Source: an uncultured Eubacteriales bacterium (lineage in GTDB: Bacteria > Bacillota > Clostridia > TANB77 > CAG-508). Taken from it: a DNA stretch of 64,000 nt. The stretch's first letter is position 1. Each line of letters opens with the position of its first letter. The DNA lies in contig CASEIZ010000024.1 of assembly GCA_949288185.1 (NCBI GenBank), positions 10,303-74,302 on the forward strand, given 5' to 3'. The notes below the pieces were generated by a model, which saw only the letters and a list, made by a program, of their open reading frames with translations, did not search any database and was not told where the DNA came from. Shown in pieces: positions 62,723-63,310 of this stretch. Position numbers and translations under genes: made by a program.

Positions 62723-62739
62723 CATATAGAATTAGACCT
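62723..62739. repeat. Left arm of a perfect 17-bp inverted repeat
   Basis: catatagaattagacct. The reverse complement is at 63294-63310. Confidence 0.9.
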
Positions 62740-62779
62740 AAAATTATTTAGTTACAAAATCGTTTTAGATAATCAAAGA

Positions 62780-63265
62780 TTATCCATAAATCCATACCTG
62801 AACAAGAACAGATGCACCCTGAGGAATACCAAACAACAATGTATATTCACTTGTGCCAGGACCATGCCATAAATCGTGGTGTTCAACCGTGTCATTTGAA
62901 GACATTGATCCACTAATATCAGAAGCTGGTTCACCACCACTTACATATCCGATATAGTCCAACTGATAATTTCCTGAACAACTTGTTTTGATTGTAATTC
63001 CCATTCCACCTAATCCAGAAGAAGAAACAGGTATTTCTATTATGGAATTACCAGAGGTTAAACTTTTCTGGTTATATCCACTAATACTACTTCTGGCAAC
63101 AGAAGTTTCAGCATCACCATTTACCTCAAAGGTATAAAGTTTAGCTGTCTTCTCCGTGGATGCCTCGGCAGGTGTTTTTTCAGCCGCAAATGTCGGCATA
63201 GCACAGGTTAAGCAAAGTGCCAAGGTCAACAGTACAGAAAAAATCCGTTTTTTAATCTTATTCAT
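62780..63265 (-). CDS. Secreted small protein, cassette H
   Basis: Signal peptide MNKIKKRIFSVLLTLALCLTCAMPTFAAE, GGAGG RBS. GC-richer. In-frame CGG at 63245. Confidence 0.6.
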   Translation of the reverse strand: MNKIKKRIFSVLLTLALCLTCAMPTFAAEKTPAEASTEKTAKLYTFEVNGDAETSVARSSISGYNQKSLTSGNSIIEIPVSSSGLGGMGITIKTSCSGNYQLDYIGYVSGGEPASDISGSMSSNDTVEHHDLWHGPGTSEYTLLFGIPQGASVLVQVWIYG

Positions 63266-63293
63266 AATGATACCTCCAATTGTTTGAACATAA

Positions 63294-63310
63294 AGGTCTA
63301 ATTCTATATG
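63294..63310. repeat. Right arm of the perfect 17-bp inverted repeat
   Basis: aggtctaattctatatg, lying between the upstream region and the RBS of cassette H. Confidence 0.9.

Follow-up and report, generated by a model that had tools for sequence, protein, structure and literature searches.

The leader-trailer helices of ribosomal RNA (rRNA) are processing stalks that are cut by RNase III or Mini-III, and the end-to-end helix (fbi/tac) of the hok mRNA is supported by covariation. In the aapA1 mRNA of Helicobacter pylori, which encodes a type I toxin, a 5′-3′ interaction sequesters the Shine-Dalgarno (SD) sequence until the 3′ end is processed (PMC5416894). In Staphylococcus aureus, initiation is blocked when a UCCCCUG motif in the 3′ untranslated region (UTR) of icaR pairs with the SD (Ruiz de los Mozos et al. 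2013, PMC3868564). The resulting duplex creates an RNase III site, and the motif is not conserved even in other staphylococci (PMC3868564). In the hbs mRNA of Bacillus subtilis, a 14-nt stretch just downstream of hairpin hp2 pairs with its complement just upstream of the terminator (PMC5737220), and this duplex limits cleavage by RNase Y in the segment from the hairpin to the SD (Braun, Durand & Condon 2017, PMC5737220). For 5′/3′-UTR pairing in bacterial mRNAs, a 2025 preprint cites reports on hbs and icaR only (PMC12697547). Here, we analysed a 64,000-nt stretch of contig CASEIZ010000024.1 from an uncultured Eubacteriales bacterium (hereafter the window), in which a secreted-protein gene is bracketed by a perfect inverted repeat. 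We found that compensatory mutations have kept the 5′ and 3′ flanks of this gene paired across dozens of gut Clostridia, and we consider it likely that the repeat is explained by an end-to-end mRNA helix, and not by a DNA switch or a transposon end.

The repeat consists of CATATAGAATTAGACCT at 62723-62739 and its exact reverse complement at 63294-63310, with 554 nt between the arms. In RNA, a G63311·U62722 wobble lengthens the pairing from 17 to 18 bp. The arms enclose the SD, the open reading frame (ORF) of a 161-aa secreted protein on the minus strand and a 40-nt 3′ spacer; the promoter region and a GC-rich hairpin with a U-rich tail lie outside. When the flanks were shuffled, the longest match was about 8 nt and reached 13-14 at most, versus 17 in the window. 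Among the 1,719 SD-preceded ORFs of the genome, the secreted-protein gene ranks first for complementarity between its 5′ and 3′ flanks (34 versus 14.5 ± 2.9). The 17-mer occurs at these two sites only in the 2.05-Mb genome, even with one mismatch allowed, and the repeat ends show no target-site duplication (flanks ...gattca and cttgac...). Rfam covariance models, run over 62400-63600 on both strands, gave nothing near gathering scores. An earlier sequence-only reading of this DNA had described perfect 17-bp inverted repeats around the ribosome-binding site (RBS) and ORF, placed the promoter region and terminator hairpin outside them, judged a chance match negligible and seen no target-site duplication. 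All of this is borne out, the 3′ spacer being enclosed as well. It had also offered three explanations, of which a duplex of the 5′ UTR with the 3′ UTR, closing the mRNA, is the one we retain, on the grounds of covariation, the G·U bias of the sense strand, the presence of the 5′ arm in RNA and the global fold. From 5′ to 3′, the mRNA and its promoter comprise the following features.

63370..63375, minus strand: TATAAT, putative −10-like box of the secreted-protein gene, read from the sequence, with a poor −35; predicted +1 at A63363
63336..63364, minus strand: P1, predicted 5′-terminal hairpin of 11 bp, from the minimum-free-energy (MFE) and centroid folds of the 710-nt mRNA
63347-63363, minus strand: predicted smaller alternative of P1, AATAG..CTATT
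63313..63335, minus strand: P2, predicted hairpin adjoining the 5′ arm, inside the RNA contigs
63294..63311, minus strand: 5′ arm of the long-range helix, 17 Watson-Crick pairs plus G63311·U62722, covered by RNA contigs of runs X25, X27, X29 and X30
63273..63277, minus strand: SD, GGAGG, left unpaired by the helix, beginning 16 nt past the 5′ arm
62780..63265, minus strand: ORF of the 161-aa secreted protein (signal peptide and 8-strand jelly-roll)
62744..62754, minus strand: TAACTAAATAA, compact stops in all three frames with 4-nt spacing, 4 nt ahead of the 3′ arm
62722..62739, minus strand: 3′ arm of the long-range helix, beginning 41 nt after the stop codon
62703..62719, minus strand: P4, predicted hairpin AUCAUCU AAA AGAUGAU, 2-3 nt beyond the 3′ arm
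62662..62701, minus strand: intrinsic-terminator-like hairpin (62674-62701) and U-rich tail (62662-62673), from sequence and fold

A simple terminator scanner did not call the hairpin at 62674-62701, whose loop is above the scanner's limit. At the other end of the mRNA, the arrangement of TATAAT, a 6-nt spacer and hairpin P1 recurs in the window and in loci L004, L010, L011, L019 and L032.

Homologous loci were drawn from genome and metagenome collections and belong to Clostridia from the gut of chicken, rabbit, human and deer. A helix of 10-19 bp recurs at two constant positions in about 40 distinct loci from about 15 genera: the 5′ arm ends 17-29 nt ahead of the ATG, and 13-68 nt separate the stop codon from the 3′ arm, which comes just before a hairpin or terminator. 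The arms themselves come in more than 20 different sequences, each complementary to its own partner, as in the following three loci.

L011: 5′ arm TACAGGATTAGGTTA, 3′ arm TAACCTAATCCTGTA; different from the window's arms, yet complementary to each other
L012: 5′ arm CAAGATTGGGCAT, 3′ arm ATGCCCAATCTTG; different from the window's arms, yet complementary to each other
L016: 5′ arm TAAGACTGGACA, 3′ arm TGTCCAGTCTTA; different from the window's arms, yet complementary to each other

A loosely conserved core, AGRATTRG, is shared by the arms. When 5′ and 3′ flanks were re-assorted between loci, the pairing sum of own partners (613) stood far above that of deranged partners (317 ± 12), and none of 20,000 permutations reached it; this permutation test is more independent than anchored pair counting. 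The own 3′ flank was the best partner in 20 of 23 arm families. In A2, an alignment anchored without gaps, pairing holds for 83% of cells versus 57% in shuffles, and the covariation score is 0.757 versus 0.24 in shuffles (reached in 0/500) and 0.08-0.15 in slid registers; 18 of the 20 A2 pairs have changed on both sides. RNAduplex applied to whole flanks over-extended the pairing and was left out of the conclusions. Changes on a shorter time scale follow the same pattern. Indeed, orthologues that are 71-75% identical share an 18-bp repeat with a single A-to-G change, which makes a G·U pair in the sense RNA. Among strain variants of the window, T62725C (run X17) would keep the pairing via U·G, and a C inserted behind 62736 (X26/X28) would still pair in the same way. 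In the X26/X28 strain, which co-circulates, the region beyond the terminator (62566-62673) is heavily rearranged, with about 30 gapped positions.

The mismatches tell in which molecule the helix matters. Helices were scored with G·T and A·C penalised equally, so that the score is strand-symmetric. At 11 loci with different arms, the internal transition mismatches, read on the sense strand, comprised 15 G·U and 1 A·C (binomial p = 5 × 10⁻⁴), whereas strand-symmetric mutation, in DNA sites or under neutral drift, predicts a 1:1 ratio. This 15:1 bias thus points to a helix formed in the transcript of the coding strand and not in DNA. It shows that selection acts on the helix in the sense-strand RNA, and it makes it very likely that the helix does form there. 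The comparison of G·U with A·C is also a cheap way to discriminate RNA helices from DNA sites.

The predicted structure of the whole mRNA is consistent with this pairing. Both the MFE and the centroid folds of the predicted 710-nt mRNA hold the 18-bp helix (z = −6.2 versus shuffles). A P2-type hairpin precedes the 5′ arm in 22 of 24 arm families, with unrelated sequences, a mean z of −3.85 and a median gap of about 2.5 nt to the arm. Likewise, a hairpin follows the 3′ arm in 21 of 24 arm families with a median gap of 2 nt, and in distant clades this hairpin is the terminator itself; in the window, P4 and then the terminator hairpin abut the 3′ strand. The outer end of the helix is thereby predicted by the fold to be a three-way junction of P2, the helix and P4/terminator, which would join both ends of the mRNA.

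The SD takes no part in this structure. Paired with the 3′ spacer, the SD segment has a duplex energy of −122.6 kcal/mol for own partners and −121.1 ± 7.8 kcal/mol for deranged ones, and anti-SD words are found in 1 of 20 3′ spacers. Sequestration of the SD by the 3′ UTR was rejected on these figures. Since the SD is left unpaired by the helix and has no locus-specific complement in the 3′ spacer, the helix should be compatible with translation. A compact three-frame stop motif of the TAACTAAATAA type is present in 9 of 35 family loci versus 1.8% of the other ORFs of the genome, an enrichment that is suggestive at most, the nine loci representing only about six related clades. The motif may keep stray ribosomes out of the helix. 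An integron attC-like fold of single-stranded DNA was also considered and dropped, given the 554 nt that separate the arms and the transcription of the whole region as one unit.

Metatranscriptome contigs show that the gene is expressed on its own. In runs X25 and X27, it is covered by one isolated contig each (62737-63352 and 62738-63339, respectively). In X30, contigs jointly cover 62862-63345 at a depth of about 300, and in X29 contigs extend from 62803 to 63353. One of the latter ends at 63353 with the Illumina adapter directly after this position, which marks a real cDNA end. In all four runs, depth is zero on the two neighbouring genes; in these metatranscriptomes, from chicken and other guts, the adjacent sigma operon and the upstream endonuclease/phosphatase-family gene have a depth of 0-1.7. 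With isolated contigs and little or no depth over its neighbours, the gene is transcribed alone: it yields a monocistronic RNA that includes both P2 and the 5′ arm and has a reasonably supported 5′ end (about 63353) upstream of that arm. As the depth of this mRNA reaches about 300 beside a near-absent sigma mRNA, its high expression needs no detectable sigma mRNA. The 3′ arm is covered in run X17. Moreover, a terminator lies downstream of the 3′ arm in every locus, so the primary transcript should contain the 3′ arm, which from this arrangement is presumably in the same molecule as the 5′ arm.

By analogy with B. subtilis hbs, we propose that the helix controls the decay or processing of the mRNA. 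The two arms would be the strands of a long-range helix in a single monocistronic mRNA of about 700 nt, the 5′ strand lying in the 5′ UTR just after P2 and 16 nt ahead of the SD, and the 3′ strand in the 3′ UTR, 41 nt past the stop codon and just ahead of P4 and the terminator. Their pairing would close the whole RBS-plus-ORF unit into a loop, with the ends tied in the three-way junction and with the SD, start codon and stop codon left free, so that the helix would be compatible with translation. Access of an RNase Y-type endonuclease to the segment between the 5′ hairpins and the SD could thus be limited, and both ends would be held in structure against 5′ and 3′ exonucleases. Such protection of the mRNA could set the output of a highly expressed secreted protein.

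Several points weigh against this reading. The A2 alignment was anchored on the helix register, which favours structure, a bias that the shuffle, slide and permutation controls offset only partly. Covariation does not distinguish pairing in cis from pairing in trans. The RNA evidence consists of assembled metatranscriptome contigs, not reads. The observed 5′ ends (63339-63353) are 10-24 nt downstream of the predicted +1 (63363) and fall within P1, so that how much of P1 is in the RNA, and where exactly the RNA starts, is uncertain. The X25 and X27 contigs halt 2-6 nt into the 3′ arm, and the abundant RNA may thus lack this arm; their stop could stem from 3′-end processing, from poor random-primed coverage of the last, structured 75 nt or from the strain indel at 62736. 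Finally, it is by analogy only that we assign the helix a role in stabilising, processing or tuning the mRNA.

On the available analogies, a protective effect of the helix, rather than a cleavage mark or an action in trans, stands at about an even chance. The same helix might be made to be cut: its duplex of 13-19 bp, stacked on P2 or P4, would offer an RNase III-type substrate like the icaR duplex or the rRNA stalks, or else cleavage at the base of the 3′ arm would remove the arm, P4 and the terminator and so mature or destabilise the mRNA, one version being 3′ processing as in hok/aapA1. Such cleavage has precedents in icaR (PMC3868564) and aapA1 (PMC5416894). The helix length is within the range of RNase III, and RNA contigs of two independent studies end at 62737/62738, on the first nucleotides of the 3′ arm, but these contigs run unbroken through the 5′ arm to 63339-63352 with no matching cut in the 5′ strand. 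Contig ends are weak evidence, the more so with a strain indel at 62736; moreover, the SD is not sequestered by the helix, so that removing the 3′ arm would unmask no translation. We regard cleavage as unlikely. An action in trans, in which a 3′-UTR piece of about 75 nt (arm, P4 and terminator) would be released, or made separately, as a small RNA (sRNA) and pair with the 5′ UTR of other copies of the mRNA, appears very doubtful. Seed, hairpin and terminator are the usual layout of 3′-UTR-derived sRNAs, and the contigs do end at the arm boundary; however, the 17-mer has no other target in the genome, the 3′ UTR has no properly spaced promoter (TGTAAC-N12-GGTC in the window's clade, none in most clades), and covariation is silent on this choice. 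Pairing in trans was not excluded by the authors of the hbs study either (PMC5737220). It is decidedly unlikely, to our mind, that the two UTRs form a split RNA domain (P2, helix and P4/terminator junction) that does more than protect passively and works as a regulated device. Cleavage at the base of the 3′ arm, for example, might toggle the mRNA between a locked, stable state and an active or short-lived one, or free a 3′-UTR sRNA, and the device might be coupled to ribosome traffic via a conserved early CGG codon. If true, these mRNAs would represent a new class of end-to-end switch, one that a bacterial family has conserved.

Explanations at the DNA level, to which the sequence-only reading had given its two other proposals, fare worse. 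In an invertible ON/OFF segment, a recombinase encoded elsewhere would flip the RBS and ORF away from the fixed promoter; promoter and terminator lie outside the arms, so flipping would indeed silence the gene, and an integrase gene is found at the edge of the module in L011. However, that integrase is the only one, and the gene neighbourhoods hold no conserved or linked recombinase. No joint, strand switch or inverted form was seen in the DNA and RNA contigs of 12 runs, a check of low power that used contigs and no raw reads and that rare flipping could escape. None of about 50 loci has the arrangement that an inversion would give, all 40 loci with a divergent sigma gene have the same orientation, and none has a same-strand sigma gene just downstream. 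Arms that shrink to 10-12 bp and differ in every clade, together with a 15:1 ratio of G·U to A·C that is unexpected for DNA sites, make this switch extremely improbable. We give as little credence to the arms as terminal repeats of a mobile cassette or as inverted regulator sites (DNA looping or a cruciform). The GC content of the gene exceeds that of its surroundings, its distribution is patchy, and the loosely conserved core of the arms could be taken for a binding site; nonetheless, a protein site would be conserved, whereas the arms co-vary, and the strand-asymmetric wobble pattern points to RNA. The genome holds only two copies of the arm, without target duplication, and the phage and plasmid collections gave no match. 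Comparison of relatives for the arm-bounded unit showed that the arms vary in sequence and always accompany the gene, which was never seen without them, and that the variable boundary is elsewhere: the mobile unit is the gene with its UTRs, usually with the sigma operon, and not the piece bounded by the arms.

Upstream of the secreted-protein gene, and divergent from it, lies an operon for an extracytoplasmic function (ECF) sigma factor, a zf-HC2 anti-sigma factor and a Spo0A_C-like response regulator. Its features in the window are as follows.

63474..63503, plus strand: TGTAAC-N17-GGTCTAA, ECF-type promoter of the divergent sigma operon and a conserved element ahead of the sigma gene
63312..63339, plus strand: sigma-A-like promoter TTGACA-16-TGtCATAAT aimed at the sigma gene, 11/12 matches, in the window's clade only
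63521..64000, plus strand: ECF sigma factor gene, running off the window, followed by the zf-HC2 anti-sigma and Spo0A_C-like response regulator genes

The sigma-A-like promoter overlaps P2 on the opposite strand, and the predicted divergent starts are head-to-head, about 18 nt apart. TGTAAC-N16-19-GTC stands before the sigma gene in 26 of 39 distinct loci, and TGTAAC-N17-GGTCTAA is an ECF-type promoter that is conserved and probably autoregulated. In the 5′ region of the secreted-protein gene, the motif was found with promoter spacing in 0 of 39 loci; in the 3′ UTR, an ECF-like motif is present in one clade only, with N12 spacing. An ECF-dependent promoter for the secreted-protein gene, or one hidden in the arms, was rejected on these counts. 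The sequence-only reading had noted that the GGTCTAA upstream of the sigma gene also occurs inside the repeat arms. The conserved ECF-type promoter stands, but GGTCTAA in the window's arms, 12 nt after TGTAAC, is a lineage-specific coincidence: the arms of other clades are unrelated in sequence.

The sigma gene is divergent from the secreted-protein gene in 40 loci. It lies beyond 1 kb downstream, on the opposite strand, in 5 others, and in 7 loci with an upstream flank of 1.4 kb or more the fetched stretch did not contain it. The helix is kept where the fetched flank holds no adjacent sigma gene; it thus travels with the gene. Antitermination of the ANTAR type by the adjacent response regulator was rejected, as its output domain is Spo0A_C-like and DNA-binding. 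Repeated boxes resembling TTGTTATCTTTT (TTCTTATCTTTT in the window, at about 63419-63433) lie upstream of the −10 box, with equivalents in L004, L010, L011, L012 and L022, and other clades (L016, L028) have TGTCGAA boxes, which are 0A-box-like, upstream of the −10 of the secreted-protein gene. Both kinds of box are candidate binding sites for the response regulator. On the opposite flank, a Y-family polymerase (IMS) gene overlaps a YolD-like gene (59447-61007). Such an IMS/YolD-like pair is also found beside the module in L004 and L007, with different intervening genes, which shows that the flank opposite to the sigma operon is variable.

The protein itself has a signal peptide followed by an eight-strand jelly-roll, predicted with a local distance difference test score (pLDDT) above 95 for residues 57-161. 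GGMGIT and a C-terminal VWIYG motif are invariant in the family. A structure search with the predicted fold retrieved generic jelly-roll neighbours only, with template modelling (TM) scores of about 0.4. Pfam gave no family match to the protein, NCBIfam only two weak matches far below the cut-off, and a sequence search of the PDB a single weak match (E 0.0015); the phage and plasmid collections contained no match to it. The family is small, with 118 clusters at 50% identity among 1.84 billion proteins, and the module is accessory, being present in 46 of 401 genomes of the bacterial family and, besides the window's own, in 2 of 22 other genomes of the genus. The GC content of the ORF is about 40%, versus 16-26% in its flanks. 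The sole CGG of the ORF is its Arg codon 7 (63245-63247, minus strand; AAA AAA CGG ATT), and a dozen diverged homologues likewise have a single CGG at codon 4-9, even though Arg is usually encoded by AGA. If this CGG and the base after it were read as one four-base codon, the frame would shift and reach a stop after 12 residues.

The gene with the second-best 5′/3′ flank helix of the genome lies outside the window (G000 contig C8:52421-52660) and encodes a 79-aa membrane protein. In its flanks, TCTGGTTAGATTACACT at −62 pairs with AGTGTAACCTAACCAGA 9 nt past the stop codon (16/17, with one A·C), and a terminator follows directly. This is possibly a second end-to-end mRNA helix.

The end-to-end helix of the secreted-protein mRNA has practical consequences. 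The natural variants of its arms, more than 20 in about 15 genera, amount to mutate-and-rescue evidence that selection maintains the pairing of the two ends, and they are a ready set for testing the function of this pairing. For genome scans, the locus shows that a perfect inverted repeat around a gene need not mean an inverton or a transposon.

Compared with the rRNA stalks, the helix likewise pairs the flanks of a long functional RNA over hundreds of nucleotides and is kept by covariation; however, the RNA enclosed here is a translated ORF, and cleavage is known for the stalks only. As in hok and aapA1, an end-to-end helix would close the whole mRNA. In these mRNAs 3′ processing removes the 3′ strand, and here RNA contigs end at the boundary of the 3′ arm. 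Nonetheless, hok and aapA1 encode toxic peptides of less than 60 aa, have an antisense RNA as antitoxin and sequester the SD, whereas the present gene encodes a 161-aa secreted beta-sandwich protein and its SD is free. No antisense partner turned up at the locus, where no search was aimed at antisense RNA. With icaR, the locus has in common a 3′ UTR that pairs with the 5′ UTR of its own mRNA species and a duplex that is a potential RNase III substrate, but the SD of the window's gene is free and its helix is conserved across genera.

The closest likeness is to hbs. Both mRNAs are short, monocistronic and highly expressed, with 5′ hairpins; in both, the 5′ strand comes after a 5′ hairpin and before the SD and the 3′ strand just before the terminator (22/24 and 21/24 arm families here, respectively), and the SD is outside the duplex. 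In hbs, compensatory mutations restore the effect of the duplex, and the natural compensatory changes in the window's family are the equivalent. The two also differ. The present gene encodes a secreted jelly-roll protein of uncultured gut Clostridia and not HU, its helix of 10-19 bp has a deep phylogenetic covariation that is not reported for hbs, and it has an extra P4 hairpin and a three-frame stop motif; an effect on RNase Y/J1 is known for hbs only. Altogether, the helix of the window joins the small known class of 5′/3′-UTR pairings, with hbs as its nearest relative. Evolution-backed end-to-end pairing of mRNAs is rare in bacteria, and within this class the present helix is unusually well supported by evolution.

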